Positions 17,296 to 43,992 of a stretch of 64,000 bases of DNA are shown piece by piece. Numbering within the stretch: the stretch's first letter is position 1; every line of letters begins with the position of its first letter. The position numbers and the translations under genes are program-made. Source of the stretch: Octopus vulgaris (taxonomy: Eukaryota); assembly GCA_951406725.2 (NCBI GenBank), contig OX597823.1:77376001-77440000 (forward strand), written 5' to 3'. The notes below the pieces were generated by a model that made no database searches, was not told where the DNA came from, and was given only the letters and a program-made list of their open reading frames with translations.

Positions 17296-18000
17296 CTCCT
17301 TATATATATACTACAATGGAAATATTACTTCGTGTATCCTGAATTTTCAGTTGCATAATTGTGTTCAATTACATCATAAGTTAATTAATGGGTGACCTGA
17401 CAGCCACTTTCTCAGCAAGAGTGCTTACAGTGAGTTTTACTTAATTATCCAAATTGAATTATCTACTTCATATATATTGGTAAGGCTTAGCTGTCAGGTC
17501 ACACATTAATTAATTTGTGATGTAACTGAACACAACTATGCAACTGAAAATCCAAGATACTCACAGTAATGTTTCCATTATAGCATATATAAGAAGCAAA
17601 GTAAAGGAGAGTGTTGTATCCTCTGTCTCCAATGTCATGATATTGTGACAGATGGTTTAGATGCACTGTACCAGTGTAGTAACAGTAAACAAGATAACGA
17701 TGCAGCCATAATAACAACTTAATGATCCAACAATCTCTTCATGAACCAACAATCAATATTCCAAATGAATTAACCAATTGACACCTTTCGACTTCACTGT
17801 GAACTCATCTCAAACTAACACACAAATTTCACTCCCTCTGCTACTGTTTATAATCGCTTGGTCCAGTCTATTTCTTGCAAGAGGGCGTCATGTCTCTCCT
17901 CCAAACAGAGATGTAAGAGGCAAGAGAAAACTTTGTTATTTCTGAATGTTTACAGTTGTTTCACAGTTTAATTGTAGTTACATCATTCACTTTGAGGAGG

Positions 18001-19603
18001 CTTTCAGTGACATTCTTGTATCCATTTGGGAGGAAGATAGTATGCAAGCATACTTCTGAGATGCCACCATAATTACACTCCACAAGAACAAAGGAGTCAA
18101 ATCGGACTGCAGAAATTACAGGGGTATTTTCCTGCTTTCCATTGCTGGAAAAATCCTGGCCTGCATCCTCTTTAACAGGCTCATCACCAGCGTCTCTGAG
18201 AGCAACTTACCTGAAGTCCAGTGTGGCTTCTGCGTCATAGATATGGTGTTTGCTTTGTGTCAAGTCAAGGAGAAATGTATTGAACAATGGATGGATTTGT
18301 ACTCTGTGTTCATAGATGTGACCAAAGTTTTGGCACCGTTAACAGAGAAGCTTTGTGGCCCATCCTAACGAAACTGGGCTGCCCACACAAGTTCACCACA
18401 TTGATAAGACTCTTTTGATGACAATATGACCAGTCAAATTCTATGTGATGGCATGAAACAGAGCTGCGTACTCACCCCCATCTTATTCAACTTGTTCTTC
18501 ATACAGGTTCTACCTTTCACAGTGAAAGACCTAGATCTGGGCACACCCATCAAACATTGCTCAGACAACTCTGTTTTGGCCTACACCGACTCTCTGCTCA
18601 AATCAAGACATTGGAAAAGCTTATCTCTGAAGGTATATTTGCAAATGACTGTGCCCTTATGGCACATAAGAAAAATCACCTGCAAAAGTATCAGCATTCT
18701 TTGGACTGACCATCAGCCTTGAGAAAATGGAGATCCTAGTTCAAGCAGCCATGAACACAATTCACTCCCAGCCAAACATCACCATTGAGGGAGTCCATCT
18801 TAAGTGTTTGAAGATTTCAAGTACCTTGGCAGCACAATCTCAGCCAATGGATCATTGGTCAGCGAAATTCTATCCAGAAACTACAAGGCCAGCCAAGCAC
18901 TTGGAAGACTGAAAGTGAAAGTACTCCAGCAGAAAGGCATCAGACTATCAACAAAGCTCAAGATTTACAAGGCAGTAGTCGTTTCTACACTATTCTATGA
19001 ATGTCAAACATTAACCCCATACTGTCGGCACATCAAACAGCTGGGACAGTTACACACAAGGGCACTGTGCAGGATTCATGGGCATTTTCTGGCAGGACAG
19101 TGTGAAAAGCCAAGAAGAGCTGGACAGAGGTTGTTCAACAAGCATTGAGTCAATGTTGCTGAAGGCTCAGTTACACTACTGGCTATGTCATCAGAATGAC
19201 TAACCACCATGTACTCAGACAGCTGTTATATGGTGAGCTCATGCTGGAATCACGCAAATGGGGAAGACCTATACTGGCATACAAGGACACACTGAAAAGT
19301 GACCTCAAAGGGAGTGACATTAGCCCATGTGAACTTGAAGCCTCTACCACAGAGAGATCAGTGTGGAGGTCTTTCACTTCATGAACAGCAGCTGCTATCG
19401 TAGAAGACCAGTGACATCTCGATACTGAAAGAGAAAGATGTCACAGGACAGCATCTGCCTCAGTCCTGTCAATAGACTATCACTGTAACATCTGTGAGCA
19501 TCTGTGAACATCTGTGTGCTTCCAGCTTTCGACTGAAGAATTACAAGCACTCTCGTCACTGAGAACACAGACTTTGTTGTCATCAGAAACTGATGGACTA
19601 CCA
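18001..19603 (+). mobile_element. 5'-truncated, decayed RTE-clade LINE (RT and C-terminal domain)
   Basis: DATIITLHKNKGVKSDCRNYRGIFLLSIAGKILACILFNRL; LPEVQCGF; DLYSVFIDVTK; GMKQSCVLTPILFNLFF; FKYLGSTIS; LSTKLKIYKAVVVSTLFYECQT; LRQLLYGEL..RKWGRPILAYKDTLK. Multiple frameshifts and stops. Confidence 0.93.
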
Positions 19604-30069: not shown

Positions 30070-30420
30070 ATATACATATATACATATAGATACATATATA
30101 TATATGTGTATGTATGTATGTATGTATGTATGTATGTATGTATGTATGTATGTATGTATATGGCTAGTTTCTGCCTTTCTACGTTGGGTGGACACATGTA
30201 TTAGTTATTAGAAAAAATAACAGACCAAAAATCTAAATAAAAACACAGAAATATAGATTACTATTTTGTCAAACCAAGTGCAAATGAAAGTTTCAAGAGC
30301 GGTGCCATTTCCCGAAATTAGTGACAAGATGAATCTGAGTTATCGGAAGAAATACCGCTACACTGCTATCTTAAGTCAGTTCCATTCCATTTTCTCTTGC
30401 AACTATGCCACTAATCTTAC

Positions 30421-30554
30421 CGAGGCTACTGATTCATCTTCATCCTCCTCGTCTTCCTCTTCGTTTTCTCCTTTTTCTTCTTTCTTTTCGGTGTTTTTCC
30501 TCATCTCCACGGTTGTTTTCGGTTAATGCTTCACTGTCGGGGATAATGTACAGG
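30421..30554 (-). other. Candidate spliced exon (134 nt) with short acidic ORF start
   Basis: Acceptor ctgagcttttgcag| and donor cg|gtaaga on the minus strand; unique and CpG-retaining. ATG at 30504 gives MRKNTEKKEEKGENEEEDEEDEDESVAS, running into the donor in phase 0. Confidence 0.4.
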
Positions 30555-30620
30555 CTGCAAAAGCTCAGGAGATACTGACAGACAGACCTAGTGTGAGAGA
30601 GGAGAAAAAGGAAAATACAG

Positions 30621-30658
<38 letters not shown>

Positions 30659-30671
30659 GTATATATATACG

Positions 30672-30714
<43 letters not shown>

Positions 30715-30834
30715 GCATAGAGAGAGAGAAAGAGAAATAGAAAGGAAATATAGATAGTGAAACAGAAAGAGGAAGTAAGATTAGGTAATTGTGATTCTGT
30801 GTGTTTGTGTATGTATGTAAAAGAGTGAGAGATT

Positions 30835-30877
<43 letters not shown>

Positions 30878-32528
30878 GGGGAGAAGGCAGGAGTGTGTAG
30901 TGTTAAACAGGAGAGCTAGAGTAAAAGAAAAAAAAATAGGTGCTTGTAAAAGAGAGGGAGAGAGAGGAAAATGAAAGATAGTCAAAGAAGACAAGAGGAA
31001 TATATATAAATTTTGTTGGAGGAGAGAGAAAGAGAGGGAGAGAGGGAGAGAGAGAGAAGGAGAGTGAGTGAGTGAGAGAGAGAGAGCAGAGACAGAAAGG
31101 AAAGGAGGAAGAGTTTAAAAATTACCCCTACAGAAAAAGGATAAAAAAGGCCCACACACACCTCCCCTACAAAATGTGGGGGGGTGAACTTATTAAGAGG
31201 AAGGTAAGAAAAATGAAACTATACAGCTGAAGGCACACGTAAGCTTAGTAAAATAGTAGAAAGCATAAATGTATACATACATTTAGGTACATGTATATAC
31301 ATACATATACCCAAACACATATATAGGTATATAATAGTATAGATAAATATATATATACATTAATTTCTTAAAACATATTTCTGTTCATTTATATATAAAT
31401 ATATAAATATATATATAATTTACAAATTCAATTATTTATGTATATTAAAAGTGTATGTGTATATAGATAGATATCTTAATATTATACATAGATTGATTGA
31501 CAGATAGATAAATAGGTACTTATATATACCAATAAATATATAGTACATTCACACAACAATAAGTATATATACAACCTAGTAGATATATATATATACATGC
31601 ATATGTACATATATGTATATTTGTATATTTAGGGAACAGCTCTTCTTTTAAACATGTTTTATTGAAGACAAGGCTGTTTATATACATTTGTATGTGTGCA
31701 TGCATGTATGCATGTAAGTGTATATATACATGTGTAAGTGTAACTTATGAACATATGTACATATTGGTTAGTACATGTAGTAGAACAACTCAATCTCAAA
31801 ACAAATGAAGTGAGCTAATAGGCAAATACATAGGAATACGGATAATTTTTTTTTTTTACCTACAAATTCTTGGCAGGCATTGTTCCTGTTAAATTCTTCA
31901 TCTCCATTCAACTTTTTTTACCACATTAGTATCATTATTAATATTATTACCTCCAGAATAATCTTCACCCCTTGTTGATCCTTCTCTATAACACATTTTT
32001 TTTTTTTTCTCTCTCACAATCTTTCTCCATCATCTTTTCTTCTTCGTGATCATGGGTTTTGTACAGCAGACTGTCAACAGGCTTTCGTTCAACACAACAC
32101 AATTTTACTTCCACTTCAAAGACTGGAGAACAGCAAATAGCGAAATATGAAATTTTATAGAATCTGCCTCATTCTAAGATATTACCACATGGAATTTTCT
32201 TCCTCATTTCTCAGTCGGAAATACTGGAATGGATGTTAATTAAGTGAACAAAAATTTCAACCAACGCTTTTCAATTTTATTTTATTTTTTTTATATCTGT
32301 GAGTCTTCATCCTTACTTGAATAACACATTGAAGGATATATATATATATAAAAAAAATTATACATACATATACCTGTATATATATATATATTTATATATA
32401 TATGTATATACACACATGCGCGTATACATAAAACAAAAAATAATCAACAGCAAAACGTGAAAACATAACACAAAACAATGCAAAATATATAAAATACAAA
32501 TATAAATACATACATTTATTTCTGTGAG

Positions 32529-32570
<42 letters not shown>

Positions 32571-32825
32571 TACACACACACTTACATAGAGAAATACTCA
32601 CACACATGCACATACATACACATATACACATGCACACACCACTTCTTACCTTCTAATAGTGCACTGCTGTTTAAGATTTTGTTCTTTTTGTTTGAGAAAA
32701 AACAACAATTCTACAATTACCAGGTAAATTCTTTTTCTACTTCTTCTGCCTCTTCTTGTTCTTGTTCTTGTTCTACTCGTTCTTCTTCCCTTTCTTCCTA
32801 TTACACTCACATGTTAAATTAATTG

Positions 32826-33070
32826 CCCCATCCCCAGCCACACTCACCCCACCCCCACGCCACCGCCGCCGCCACCCACTCCCCCGCCCCCACCCCCCAC
32901 GCTTCTCTATCCCACATCAGATCAGTTATGTTCTCTTCTTTATATCCTTATTCTCTATAAACGAAAATCACACACACACCCCTTTCACCACCCCCTACCA
33001 CCACGCCGCCGCCACCACCACCACCACCACCACCACCGCCAACACCTCCACCGCCAACACCTCCACCGCC
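32826..33070 (-). promoter_or_regulatory. GC/CpG-rich patch with G-quadruplex-forming G-runs (minus strand)
   Basis: C-runs cccc/ccccc/cccccc at 32826-32898, ccgccgcc and (CCA)n, in an otherwise ~30% GC background. A 15-bp tandem ccaccgccaacacct lies at ~33033-33070. Confidence 0.45.
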
Positions 33071-35317
33071 ATACTTTTACTTCCCACCATCCCTCCATTC
33101 CACACCAAAAATTAAAAAAAACACACATTGCCACATTCACTACCCCTGCACTCTTCCCTCACCACCACCAACACCGCTACCACCGCCATCATACCACCAC
33201 AACCAACAACAACAACTACACTTCCTGGAATAGAAAAAAAAAAATTAAAAAATAAATAAAGAAATAAAAATTCGTGGGGGGTGTTTCTCGTGTGTATGTG
33301 CGTGTGTGTGCAACGTTATTCCTACATTTTCTCTCTCCCGTTTTATATGTGTATGTGCGTGCATGTGCGTGTATGTTTGCGTGAGTGTAACACCACAGAT
33401 ATAAACAATACATAGAAATAGCACACACAACAGCAACAACAACAACAACAACTACAACCACACAAATTTCTTTTATTTTTTCTTTTATTTTTTTTTTTTA
33501 TATATTCTACAAAATACCAACTGAAGAAATAATACCTCGACGAAACTGGATTTATGGTCTAAAAATACCAGAAGACAAGGCGGAGTTCACGAAATTAACA
33601 AATAATTATATATATATATATATATATGTGTATATATATATATACATATATATATATACCAACAAGGAAAAAAAAAATAACAACAAAGAGCAACAACAAT
33701 GGAAATTAACACGGTGTATCTAAAATAATAATAATAAAAATAATAATAATAATATTGCTGATAATAATAATCCACCAAGCATGAATGAAGAGGAAGGAAT
33801 TTGAATTTCTACCATCATTTTCTTTGGAATACGATACTTACCAATGAATGTATTCTTCTTATATATATCTTTGATTGACTCAAGACTTGCTTAGTTAAGG
33901 TAAGCAAATATTTCTAAGACATATTATATATATATAATATATATATGTATATATATGTATATATATATGTATATGTTACATAATATTTTGTTGTGTATAT
34001 GCATTCTATTATATATAAAAGTAAAAAAAAAATGACATTATGTGTGTATATATATATATATATATGTCTATATATATATGTGTATATATAAATATAAATA
34101 TATATGCATATACACAGAGGTATATATATATATTATATGTACACACAGAAATATATATATCATATATTTTTCTATGTAATACTTATATACATGCATGTAT
34201 ATATATATATATTTATATGCATATGTAAGTATATAATATCACTTTGGATTTTCCTATTCTTGAAATTTTTTTCCTCATACTAATCTTAAAATTTATGTTT
34301 TTACTGATTGTGTTATTGATACCGAATTTAAATAATGAAATAATGTGAAATATTTGAAGCATGTGTGTTTAAAAAATTGATATATATAAAAATATATATA
34401 TATAGATATAGATATATTTATATATATAGTGTGTGAGTGTGATAATACATGTTATAGATTAAATCTTTGACAGTAATTTAGATTTTAATCATAGAATTAT
34501 ACATAGACTGATAAATACATAGAAATATATATATAAGGGTGAATCCTTGTTAGCGAGGATGAGTACAAATGTGTATGTTCGTGTATCTGGAAGCACACAT
34601 TAACATATGTAAGCAAGTGTGTATTCTGTCAATACCGGTACTTGATGCTTTCAAAGAATAATCATTCTACCTTCAAATACAGACGCACATGAACGGCACA
34701 CACACGTGTGTGTGAGTGCGTGTATGATGTGTGTATGAGCATGTGAGTGTGTGAGTGTGCATACATATATATACTTGCCAACATGATACACATGCACAAA
34801 CAATTCACACGTACACACATAAGTGTGCATATACATACATACCTACATATATATATATATATAATGTGGGTGTATGTGTGTGTAACTATGTACACATGCA
34901 TTGAAATGTACACTCGTATATATAGCAGCCATTTATATAAGTATGTGCTTGTGTGTGGAAGTATTCGTATGTATGTATATATAAATTTGTGTGGTTTACT
35001 TCATAAAAATATATATATGTGTATCAAAGTTTAAAAAATCATTCGTATTTATACACCTGTATATGTACATACCTACATATATATACATACTTATATATGT
35101 GTGTCTATATATATGTATACTTTCAAGTATGTATATATGTTGTACATCCATGACTGAGTATAAACTATACTTTTAATGTAATTTACCTACTTTCATTATC
35201 AGATGGAAGGGGAACTTGTGTTAACCCATTTAATTCATGATTTGGAGACTACCTAGAAACCCCAATCCTATGTACCTAATACACAAACATTCTACAGCAC
35301 TCATTCACATGCACACG

Positions 35318-37201: not shown

Positions 37202-37453
37202 ATCCACTGAAATACATTCAAAGGATTTGCATCATTTTAGAAACTCTCTGTTCTTCTTTCTTTCTATCATTTTCTTCCAATTCACTTCTCCTTCTTCTTC
37301 TTCTTCTTCTTCTTCTTCTTCTTCTCCTTCTTCTTCTTCTTTTCCATCACCCTTCTCTCTCTATTTCTCTCTGTCTCTGTCTCTCTCTTCTCTTTCTTTT
37401 TATTTATTTAGGTTCCATTATTTTCTTCGTGCTTCTTCAAAAAGGATAATAAC

Positions 37454-39889: not shown

Positions 39890-40147
39890 CCTCTCTGTTA
39901 TCCAAATTCCTGATTATTTCTGCTAAAGGACAATTCCAAAGCCAGTTACATCCTCAAATATTCTTATTCAAATATTAATCCGTACTTGATGAATGTCAAC
40001 AAAAGTATAAATAAATAAATTGACTTTCCTTCCAATATTTCACCACCAGATACCCTGTTCAGCACACTCGGTCAAACAACACCATCAAACACCATTCTCT
40101 CTTTTATTAACTCAACGCTCTAACAATTCTAAAGTTTATTACATTCG

Positions 40148-40455
40148 TCATCATCATCAGCATCATCATAATCATCATCATCATTGCCCTCATCTCTATC
40201 ATCATTGCCATCATCATCATCATCCTTCTCCTCCTCCTCAACATCCTCATCATTATCATCAACATCAGCATCATTGTTATTATTATCTTCATCAACATCA
40301 TCATCTCCATCATCATTGCCATCATCATCATCTATCATCATCATCTTCCTCCTCCTCCTACTACTCCTCCTCCTCATCATCATCATCTTTATCATCAGCA
40401 TCATCATCATTGTCATCATCATCATCATCATCACCATCATCATCTATACCATCAT
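40148..40455. repeat. (CAT)n/(CCT)n degenerate microsatellite
   Basis: Direct reading. Confidence 0.93.
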
Positions 40456-40660
40456 CGTTTAGCATACATTTTTTTTTATGCTGGCATGGGTTGAACAGCT
40501 TGCCAGGATCTGTTAAGGTGCTGGGCTGCTTTGAGCCCCAGTGTCAGCTTTGGCATGGTTTTCACAGCTGCATACCCTTCCTAATACCAACATCTTTACA
40601 GAGAATACAATATGCCACTTTTTTTTTCTTTTTTGTATTACCAGCACTAGTGAGGTCACC
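40455..40660 (-). mobile_element. RTE-type 3' tail
   Basis: atgctggcatgggttg...cagctgcatacccttcctaatacc. Confidence 0.7.
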
Positions 40661-41032
40661 AAATAAGTGTGAGGTCACTCAAATATCTATCTGTACACAA
40701 TATAAAACAAAACAGAAACAGACGTAATGAATTTTGCTTCAGATATTCAATGTCAAACACACTGTCCAACAAACACATTCTGTCAAACACCACCATCAGT
40801 CATAACTGTCAAACATCTTTTATTAACCCAACACTCTGTGGTAAATAGGTAAGTCAGTTTCTCCCTAACAGTATTCATCATACCAGCTTAAACTAGGAAG
40901 GGTTTATTTGATAATATGGTCTTAGGAATGGTGATCATAAACAGAACATCTTTGATCAATGATCTGCTTAATTTGAACCAACTTTGGCTAAAAAACAACA
41001 GCAACAACATTTTCTCTGAATCAAATTTTTCA

Positions 41033-41377
41033 TTAACCTTTTGGTAACCATGTTTCCATTGAAATATGTTGCTTTTTTCCATTTCAATTAATTTTGAATA
41101 TAATGAAGAATTTAGTAAAATAACTTCATTATAATTAAAGCAGCAGTAGTCAATCACGTAAGTACCAGTTGAATACTGGGGTCATTTTAATCAACTAATC
41201 TCCTCCCTTTAAAATTGCTGGCCTTGTGCCAAAATTTCAAACCATTATTATTAAGATGGTGTTTGAAACATTAATTAATGTAAGCTATTTAGGAAAGATT
41301 GCAATTTAGGTCATTTTAAAACAAGAAATTTGTACTATTGATCCAGATCTCAGGCAGATTGGTATCAGAGCGATTAA
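41033..41377. mobile_element. piggyBac-like MITE (family of 1968-2189) with nested SINE B fragment
   Basis: Shares ttcaattaatttt.aatataa..aagaatttagtaaaataactt and aaaacaaga.atttg with 1968-2189. A SINE B 3' piece is inserted at about 41155-41250. Confidence 0.65.
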
Positions 41378-41655
41378 CAAATTCCAGCACACAGATCTCC
41401 TTTCTGTTAAATATTATATGGGTCAAACAAGTTTCAGACATAATGTTTCCATCAAGCAACATCTAATTCAAACACTTTTCCATAAAACACTTTTTCTTTT
41501 TGCTAAACATTGGCATAAAGCATCCTTCTATCTATCAAACATTTTCATTAAACATCAAAGGAATCTTCTACATGTTTATTCAATTGGTTAGAAAAATCAC
41601 CCAACTCTCACTCAAATTGCACCTTACTGTCTTGAAAAGCAATAACATGTTAGAT

Positions 41656-41786
41656 ATATTAATAGTTATCGCCAAGCTAATATGCCAGTCCAGAAATATA
41701 GGACGAATGCTGCTGTTGGATGCTGCCGAATGTTACCGTCCTATATTTCTGGACTGACATGTTAGCTCGGTGATAACTATTAATAT
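41656..41786. mobile_element. Fold-back MITE-like hairpin
   Basis: 50-bp arms (41656-41705 / 41737-41786) with 4 transition mismatches and a 31-nt loop. Confidence 0.75.
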
Positions 41787-41929
41787 CTAGTACCGCTGCC
41801 GTAGTCTCCTTTAGAGAGACTTAGAAATTTCAATATTTCTATGTTAGATATAATTTAGACTAAATAGACTTAGTCTGAGTAAAAAATATAACCTTACACT
41901 TACAGTTAGAATATATTTGAAAATAGATT

Positions 41930-42140
41930 ATCATCATCATCATTTAACGTCCATTGTCCATGTTTGTGTAGGTAGGATGGTTTGACCAGGGCTGGTAAGA
42001 TGAAGGGCTGCATCAGACTCTAGTCTGATTTGGTATGGTTTCTATGGCTGGATGCTCTTCCTAATTCCAACCACTCCGTGGGTGCTTTTATGTGCCACCA
42101 GCACAGGTACCAGTTGTATGACACCAGTATCTGCTACTAT
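41930..42140 (-). mobile_element. RTE-type 3' tail
   Basis: (CAT)n-tttaacgtcc...ggctggatgctcttcctaa. Confidence 0.72.
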
Positions 42141-43092
42141 TACAGTTTCATCTATTTGATAAGAGCTAAACTGAGTTTAAACAACCACAAACTCTCTGGC
42201 TTAAATTCCTTCTCACAGAATCGCAGCATCTTCCAGCATGGCTTGGAATTAATTCTGGTAAATTCTTTGGGAAATATATTAATCCATTACAAGTAATTTA
42301 TCCTCAAGAAGAGGTGAGATGAGTTCTGTATAACAACAAAACTTCTTTGGAATTTCATCCTGCTGCTGCATAGGATATTACATACTAGACATCTAGAAAT
42401 TAAAAGTTGAGTGTTCTGGGCCAAAATGCAGTTGAGTGATTAAGAACTATTGAATCCTTGGTTTACTGGAAGCTCATTCTCCTACCAACATAATTTTCAC
42501 TTCCTTAAAAACTTTATTGAATTATCTGGAAGAAAAAAATCACAAAATGTGATACTTCTTCTCTATCAAACAGCTCAATAAACATTCAATAAACACCCTT
42601 TAAACAACTTAATTCAAAAAATGTCACACAGTTTCATCAAACATGATTTGTCAACAAAAATTGTATCAGACATCAGTCAAACACTTAATGAAAAATCTCT
42701 TCAACAAGCATCTCCCTTCAAACAATAATTCAAATCCATCAAATACATTTACTTCAGCAATTTCATGAAACATTTTCTCTACCATTCAAACATGCAAGTA
42801 GGAACTCTCTTCATCAAACAGCTCCATCAAACACCTTTACATCAATAACAATTTGACCAAACATCGTTGACAAATGTTCCAATAGAAATTCTTCTCATCA
42901 AACAACTTTTCTCAAACAATGCTTTTATCAAGCATCATCTACGAAGCACTTCCATCAGCCATTAGTCAGTCACCATTTCCATCAAACAATTTCAAAAAAG
43001 TTAATCAGGAAGCTTTTACACGATCTACTATTTGATCTATAAGAAGTAGTACAAATCATAATCTTATACAAAGGATACATAACTCTTTACTC

Positions 43093-43115
43093 TGAAAGAA
43101 GCCCATCATATATAT

Positions 43116-43146
<31 letters not shown>

Positions 43147-43362
43147 CGTGTGTGTATATGTTTGTGTGTCTTTGTCTGTCCCCCAACATCACTTGACAAC
43201 CAATGCTGGTGTGTTTATGTCCCCGTAACTTAGTGGTTTGGCAAAAGAGACCGATAGAATAAGTACTAGGCTTACAAAGAATAAGTCCTGGGGTCGATTT
43301 GCTCGACTAAAGGTGGTGCTCCGGCATGGCCACAGTCAAATGACTGAAACAAGTAAAAAGAG
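43093..43362 (+). mobile_element. SINE family A, 5'-truncated
   Basis: ctgaaagaagccc...gtcaaatgactgaaacaagtaaaag. Confidence 0.85.
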
Positions 43363-43992
43363 AGATGGCTGGTCAACCTGCTACAAATAACAGCCAAATC
43401 TTCCTCAAATTATACTTTAGTTTGTTTAAAATAGAAGGCCATTTTAGATAATCTAGTGTTAGAAATAATATTTGAAAAGTAGATGCTTTTGATTACAGGT
43501 TTGATCAATTAAAGATCTCTTGAGAGTAAACAACAACATTTTTCTCTATCAAACACAACATCTTCCAAATAAATTTCTTATCAGACACTGTATTCATCAA
43601 AACTTTCACCTTGCAGTATTTCCATCATTTGGAATATCTATCAAACAGCATCAGACAATTGTCAAACACTGATATTTATCAAATAGTCACTGCATCCGAT
43701 ATCTCCCAACAACTTCTCTTCCAGGTGACTATCTCCAAACACACCCCTGTCAAATATCGCATTAATCATTGTTGTCATTTTCATTATAAACCCTCACAAT
43801 CAAGTACCCTTTTTAAAAGTCACCATGTTAAAACATTCTGTCAAATAGCTTTTCTATCAAAAACCTCATCCACTATATGCATTTTTCTTACAAAAGACAA
43901 TATTTATCAGAGTACTTTGTACTCTTGATCAGAGGTTAGCTCAATGAGAGTTGACCTGGATCTAAATGATAGCAATATTAACTATCTTATAA

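Follow-up and report, generated by a model that had tools for sequence, protein, structure and literature searches.

Short satellite arrays dispersed through euchromatin form a described class of repeats, covered by a review (PMC10048060) and by work on Tribolium (PMC4675708, PMC11610590). In the accessible portions of these sources, one and the same unit occurs in long arrays and in scattered short copies, and the old copies are decayed and interrupted. Human Satellite 3, in the available text of its description (PMC11526998), is a short-unit satellite that spells factor-like sites in many head-to-tail copies; its binding has been demonstrated, and its arrays extend over megabases. In Aedes, tapiR1 is a piRNA derived from a satellite, and satellite-derived piRNAs silence transcripts there (10.1101/2020.01.15.907428, in the part of the text that is available). 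Octopus satellites appear only as a methylation class in the accessible portion of PMC9476566, and in the literature outside subscription journals, repeat databases and bioRxiv supplements we found no description of the 13-bp unit TCAAACATTTTCA.

The window analysed here is a stretch of 64,000 nucleotides of Octopus vulgaris DNA (contig OX597823.1, positions 77,376,001 to 77,440,000 of the forward strand), in which a first-pass annotation had described a strand-polarised, dispersed array of the motif TCAAACA. The array appears to be a member of the genome's 13-bp family, behaving like other short dispersed satellite copies, and it shares with the dispersed satellites the traits listed above. 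Unlike those, its unit is minisatellite-sized at 13 bp, with arrays of about 0.15 to over 20 kb. With human Satellite 3 it has in common the many head-to-tail copies of a short unit spelling factor-like sites, but here the object is a 1.1-kb relic whose binding would be putative, and its unit departs from the nearest consensus by one or two bases. The parallel to tapiR1, a satellite as a possible guide source for motif-bearing transcripts, is a hypothesis for this locus. Set against the long TCAAACATTTTCA arrays in mosaics, the copy in the window is old, occurs once, and has an orthologue in each of four further organisms. Overall, the locus reads as a satellite relic, possibly with weak co-option.

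The motif array and its interruptions

All 21 TCAAACA coordinates reported in the first-pass annotation proved to be exact and on the plus strand, and the single reverse copy in the interval, at 41260, does lie inside a MITE-like high-copy insertion. Elsewhere, in the remaining 60 kb of the window, the motif occurs 10 times on the plus strand and 14 times on the minus strand. Dinucleotide shuffles of positions 40072-43670 (n = 1000) contained it 1.55 times on average and 8 times at most, and the Poisson probability is 5e-17; the excess is huge, although the chance expectation of below one copy given in the first-pass annotation was slightly too low. Near variants of the motif are present as had been described, and they extend to about 43870, past the end assigned to the array. 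Among plus-strand 13-mers with at most one mismatch from TCAAACATTTTCA, 30 of 33 fall inside the array, with none on the minus strand; the perfect 13-mer occurs at two places in the array, and ATCAAACA is present in ten exact copies.

The motif-bearing sequence falls into five segments, A to E (Table 1), which total 1144 bases, all have the same orientation, and are separated by high-copy repeats. The division of the array by inserted repeats is confirmed by contig depth, the names RTE, MITE and SINE being the class names of the first-pass annotation: in three genome-sized contig sets, summed depth is 1e3 to 1e7 across the interrupting stretches, and over the motif segments it is about 50-130 in X9 and 2-15 in X10 and X14. 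Segment E is single-copy by genome search, and segments A and B can be aligned with each other over about 90 bases. The repeat that had been called an RTE tail has 13 other copies at 71-79% identity, in the window and 17 loci. A SINE-like piece, at about 41148-41246, is nested in the insertion that separates segments B and C.

Table 1. Segments of the motif array and the repeats lying between them, in window coordinates
Feature	Position	Strand	Description
Segment A	40050..40125	+	2 exact motifs; local duplicate of segment B
(CAT)n microsatellite, then high-copy repeat	40148..40689		Period 3, 102 copies; depth 3e4-1e5 in X9; separates A and B
Segment B	40731..40826	+	3 exact motifs; fits the 13-bp unit weakly
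MITE-like high-copy insertion	41035..41379		Depth up to 2e6 in X9; repeats D8, D9; contains the reverse motif
Segment C	41423..41555	+	3 exact motifs among about 10 decayed units, of which the one at 41535 is a perfect 13-bp unit
MITE-like high-copy element	41656..41786		50-nt terminal inverted arms, 92% complementary; depth 1.7e5-2.6e5 in X9
High-copy repeat with (CAT)n start ('RTE tail')	41930..42150		Depth about 1e6
Segment D	42559..42999	+	10 exact motifs in a contiguous run of about 33 decayed units; principal evidence for origin and core retention
TA-rich microsatellite and very high-copy SINE-like element	43105..43358		Depth up to 5.7e7 in X9
Segment E	43535..43870	+	3 exact motifs among about 25 heavily decayed units; extends 200 bases past the end first assigned

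Inside the motif segments, Tandem Repeats Finder (TRF) detects no more than four short runs, each of about 2 copies, and the earlier statement that the array is not a tandem repeat is correct for the present-day sequence. For its origin the statement fails, the core of segment D (core D) aligning to 13-bp tandem arrays elsewhere in the genome. Regularity persists in the spacing of the motifs: with a period of 13.7 bases, chosen by eye, 12 of the 16 short spacings come to a whole number of periods to within 0.2.

Probable descent from a 13-bp satellite

Segment D aligns to the unit in a continuous wraparound alignment of about 33 units, head-to-tail, with a score of 252 on the forward strand and 36 on the reverse. 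Because the motif by itself inflates the score against plain shuffles, we froze first the exact motifs and then those with one mismatch as well, and shuffled the remaining letters (300 shuffles each). Under these conditions the highest scores for segment D were 106 with exact motifs kept and 140 with one-mismatch motifs kept. The score of segment C was reached by 0 of 300 and 2 of 300 shuffles, respectively, and that of segment E by 1 of 300 and 0 of 300. The six-base spacer TTTTCA, when ranked among all 4096 possible spacers, stands first in segment C, first in segment D, 31st in segment E, 386th in segment B and second overall, as against ranks of 25-395 in 40 null sets.

These results bear on the reading in which the motifs form an independent cluster, resembling the satellite only through a shared short word and pyrimidine-rich spacers. 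Consistent with such a cluster, identity to the unit in ungapped flanks is only 40% for the 21 exact motifs, compared with 30-35% for motifs elsewhere in the window, and unrelated tandem repeats with an identical core do exist in the genome (L029, L044). Segments A and B also fail the stricter tests: segment A alone has a score of 24 in the 13-mer test, reached by 33 of 200 shuffles and so not passing, and segment B, whose score of 46 is reached by 0 of 200 plain shuffles, is matched by 3 of 300 shuffles with exact motifs kept and by 36 of 300 with near-motifs kept. An independent cluster does not account for an in-phase spacer signal that persists when the motifs are held fixed, for a first rank of TTTTCA out of 4096 in two separate segments, or for the recurrence of the perfect 13-mer. 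For segments C and D this reading appears largely refuted, and for the array as a whole we consider it very improbable.

Segments C and D are, on the strength of these alignments, what we take to be descendants of the TCAAACATTTTCA satellite; segment E probably is too, and segments A and B are assigned to it by position and orientation. That the array as a whole originates from this satellite is, in our judgement, highly probable. Autocorrelation peaks at 13-15 bases in segment D and at 15-16 in segment E, and the overall score is 478 for a 14-bp unit and 448 for the 13-bp unit; since the 14-bp unit fits slightly better overall, the founding array was probably a mixture of 13- to 15-bp units. 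The array can thus be aligned to a satellite whose unit is 13 bp long, an outcome that the first-pass annotation had itself set against its binding model, and therefore its clustering and polarity can be explained without binding. The one-strand polarity follows from the head-to-tail arrangement of the repeats.

The 13-bp satellite in the genome

Searching the window's own genome with the 471-bp core D, and scoring 40 of 57 candidates, returned at least 69 further matches with identities of 66-71%, and the matched places are clustered tandem arrays of TCAAACATTTTCA many kilobases long. The satellite was located at 11 loci on 6 chromosomes, in seventeen 10-kb stretches, every one of which holds a period-13 array between 0.2 kb and more than 10 kb in length, and TRF run on the matched arrays gave a period of 13 with up to 775 copies per 10-kb stretch. 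Three exact TCAAACATTTTCA units in tandem occur 239 times, while the reversed control occurs 0 times. Eight long arrays that were profiled match the unit at 87-94%, with positional matches of 0.87-0.96 in the core and 0.87-0.94 in the spacer and without a steady bias toward the core. At two to three loci the 13-bp unit also forms part of mosaics that include 10-, 12- and 59-bp units, and at the C14 loci L026 and L027 it is interleaved with the 10-bp and 59-bp units.

Small dispersed copies of the family came from a search for relics, with a pattern of three motifs lacking the following T, which matched 980 times, the control matching 480 times. Among the 19 loci examined, three were copies of the family (L061, L062 and L059, the last a 15-bp variant), two were the other tandem repeats sharing the core, and one was an AC-rich artefact; for the other 13, no alignment exceeded the cut-off. 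In L059 the variation lies directly behind the core, and the array runs into a SINE-like copy.

Retention of the motif cores

Neutral decay was simulated from long arrays to matched identity, with substitution rates taken from neighbouring repeats. In none of 561 runs did at least ten exact TCAAACA remain, and at least ten copies of any rotation remained in 9 of 561. The simulations erode the Cs first; segment D instead keeps its Cs (71-79%) and loses the T-run (50-62%). Identity to the unit in the flanks of exact motifs is 46%, compared with 65% in the simulated sequences. The gap in identity between the best seven positions and the other six was reached by 110 of 561 simulations and is not significant on its own.

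Four other organisms carry the locus, at about 97% identity in organisms B, C and D and about 92% in organism E. The comparison with organism E uses run X19, a single 942-base contig that may be RNA. Segment D differs from it at 37 of 478 positions (7.7%), as against 41 of 454 (9.0%) in the adjacent flank (p 0.48). The first-pass annotation had asked whether motifs are conserved while spacers diverge, and against organism E they are: among the 30 of 37 differences listed, 8 of 216 core positions are affected and 22 of 194 other positions (p 0.004), with 0 differences inside the 9 exact motifs of the span. This skew is matched by 2 of 296 neutral pairs, with p ranging from 0.0001 to 0.064 over 12 alignment settings. 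Measured as core versus flank differences, the cores again have fewer (p 0.016, or 0.052 against pooled pieces). Three motifs, at 42600, 42614 and 42666, are intact in organism E and broken in the window, and for the motifs of either species the count is 3 of 30 versus 6.1 expected (p 0.11).

Against organism B the expected conservation does not appear. Among the 40 of 246 differences listed, 7 of the 12 within segment D strike cores; 4 of 5 listed changes present in B but absent from E lie in cores; and the exact motif at 43641 is broken in both B and C. The changes private to X19 comprise 8 T-to-C and 2 C-to-T (p 0.11), with RNA editing as a possible source. Without these 8 T-to-C changes the core deficit has p 0.014, and the test on changes found only in E moves from p 0.008 to 0.57. 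A local, transcription-linked T-to-C strand bias was rejected as the cause of spacer loss, since repeats to the right of 34 kb have T-to-C at 27 of 692 (0.039) and A-to-G at 33 of 695 (0.048). The survival of the cores beyond what neutral decay would leave is real, with a single contig, possibly RNA, carrying the comparison with organism E; that they are under actual constraint strikes us as somewhat less probable than its opposite.

Possible co-option at the DNA and RNA level

In one reading, the spacers decay neutrally and selection, through a protein or a satellite small RNA, maintains the TCAAACA cores, and the array would be a half-domesticated satellite beside a promoter island; we regard this as less likely than not. 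Its DNA-level form would have a protein reading (CA)TCAAACA, a TCF-like HMG-box factor being the nearest, keep the cores under weak purifying selection, and the array would serve the promoter-like island, which lies 6-10 kb to its left, as a distal element. This form is unlikely, in our view, despite the core retention in simulations and against organism E, and despite the interleaving at L026 and L027 with 10-bp and 59-bp units that resemble Grainyhead and TEAD sites. The minus strand of the unit agrees at 9 of 11 positions with the TCF consensus SCTTTGWWSWW (as given in the available text of PMC4154663), and octopus possesses a single TCF/LEF gene along with several Fox genes (PMC9699675, table S2). 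The two mismatches, however, include the core C of CTTTG, which is G in the unit, and the 1144 array bases contain 1 true TCF match, so that a TCF/LEF binding array as defined by this consensus was rejected. Nor is the Forkhead array suggested by the first-pass annotation borne out, as the consensus RYAAAYA (in the accessible portion of PMC8034652) has 0 matches in the unit and 4 in the array bases. Because an AT-rich 13-mer can look like several factor sites, resemblance of this kind is weak evidence. DNA-level co-option is further opposed by the lack of core bias in organism B and in the long arrays, and by the search for a gene: the window together with 200 kb of flank has 1195 candidate frames, and a Pfam scan of 101 of them, mostly the longest and with obvious simple-repeat frames omitted, gave 5 hits, transposon-type or weak, and found neither a target nor a host gene.

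Alternatively, a plus-strand transcript of the array could be bound by a minus-strand satellite small RNA or by an RNA-binding protein. A guide starting from the U of UGUUUGA would seed-pair with AUCAAAC followed by A, and conservation does drop sharply after the last A of the core (from 88% to 50%) and taper in the 5' direction, a shape suggestive of seed pairing. The ten exact copies of ATCAAACA, a predicted upstream plus-strand donor at 33897 with predicted acceptor-like tracts at 37409 and 39749, and the Aedes precedent outlined above are all in keeping with this account. Changes tolerated by wobble pairing, however, are not favoured in the cores (A-to-G at 17 of about 290 A; T-to-C at 5 of about 73, counted at the first T), one fitting start is unremarkable given five possible start Us per unit, and no Rfam family was found between 27 and 50 kb of the window. 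The text of three supplements of PMC9699675, which showed no mature-sequence list, contains no seed-matching octopus small RNA. Co-option at the RNA level is, on balance, quite improbable. A coding repeat was rejected as well, the spacings not being multiples of three and a 132-aa frame over segment E (43530-43925) having no Pfam match, and the consensus of a doublesex-type splicing repeat has 0 matches. Sets X2, X4, X5 and X6 (90-199 million letters, RNA by guess) contain 56-69% of the words, which is no evidence of expression, and X19, with no cover over segment E, is uninformative there.

We give slightly better than even chances to the reading in which the cluster is an old, short, interrupted and eroded copy of the 13-bp tandem repeat, likely without a function of its own. 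Its cores would then seem better kept likely because the founding units were already variable behind the core, as 13- to 15-bp variants, and further likely sources of apparent retention are slippage of the T-runs and the choice, in the first-pass annotation, of the best-kept word. If the array is neutral, it is a clear warning case: what looks like a strand-polarised 'binding-site array', irregular spacers included, can turn out to be fossil satellite DNA, and searching the genome settles the matter. If core retention holds in more species, the locus would be a rare natural test of the passage from satellite to regulatory sequence, because living arrays reveal the ancestral unit, and the locus has an internal control in its cores and spacers. 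Should the domestication reading be true, a repeat still amplifying elsewhere would have left a working regulatory array near a promoter island.

Age and order of events

The array had been described as older than the transposable elements that interrupt it, and the divergence estimates agree. Segment D is 73% identical to the unit, a decay of about 27% that is larger in truth, the aligner being lenient. Divergence between the two inverted arms of the 41656-41786 element is 8%, and the copy at 43165, which is SINE-like, is 8-13% divergent (87-92% identity) from the 9 closest relatives of its 15 other copies. Contigs of the other organisms cross from array segments into the insertions. An order in which the array came first and the insertions afterwards is thereby supported. 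A short array would have been seeded at the locus long ago, homogenisation would have ceased, and decay by substitutions and small indels would have followed; transposons would then have inserted into the already-seeded array, cutting it into five pieces.

We also considered a tandem repeat carried by a transposon, comparing 20 edges of other arrays and the 2 flanks in the window. This was rejected, as the comparison gave four matching pairs and no common terminus. One matching edge pair is a 403-bp duplication between two C4 loci.

Variants of the 13-bp unit and of its core

The TCAGACA variant of the core makes up about 20-35% of the units in three long arrays (genome stretches L015, L018 and L021), and it is the prevailing form in L062, a short dispersed copy of the 13-bp family. 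Another old relic, built on a 15-bp variant of the unit, lies on chromosome C4 and continues into a SINE-like copy; here the TCAAAC cores are intact while the bases immediately after them are variable, as in the window array. The unit is also found in mosaic arrays, where it alternates with 10-bp (AAACCGGTTC), 12-bp (AAAATTTT-based) and 50/59-bp units, and where orientation switches are present. The TCAAACA core is additionally carried by unrelated tandem repeats of 14, 20 and 28 bp, whose spacers are different.

Coordinates of arrays, flanks and window features
Feature	Position	Chromosome	Strand
Old relic, 15-bp variant	L059:2862-3070	C4, 69.35 Mb
Mosaic array	L026:2381-9990	C14, 64.37 Mb
Mosaic array	L027:94-6321	C14, 64.47 Mb
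Mosaic array	L013:7225-10000	C4, 6.04 Mb
Unrelated tandem repeat with TCAAACA core	L029	C1, 4.67 Mb
Unrelated tandem repeat with TCAAACA core	L044	C2, 0.98 Mb
Unrelated tandem repeat with TCAAACA core		C3, 180.41 Mb
Array with common flank	L017:5383-5982	C4, 153.56 Mb
Array with common flank	L019:5882-6481	C4, 166.97 Mb
LINE-like frames	window 17960-19440		plus
Predicted donor (splice-like signal)	window 33844		minus
Predicted donor (splice-like signal)	window 32850		minus
Predicted acceptor (splice-like signal)	window 33227		
Predicted donor (splice-like signal)	window 33897		plus

Array edges and larger duplications

Two arrays have in common a 403-bp flank at 95% identity, and on C10 (7.546-7.558 Mb, stretches L024 and L025) a unit of about 4.46 kb, composed of a 2.4 kb 13-bp array and 2 kb of other repeats, is present in three tandem copies. 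Simple microsatellites (TA, AAT, ATT, GAT) adjoin 8 of the 20 array edges examined by eye, these edges belonging to L013, L014, L022, L023, L027, L061 and L062; microsatellites are common here, and we claim no significance for this adjacency.

Other features of the window

The broken LINE-like reading frames gave no Pfam match at 0.001 and are presumably LINE, a label assigned from their motifs. To the left of the window array, splice-like signals suggest a putative bidirectional start region at 30420-33900. A short minus-strand frame, acidic and 28 residues long, starts at an ATG near 30510 and stops at a donor-like GTAAG near 30420, the donor being read by eye.
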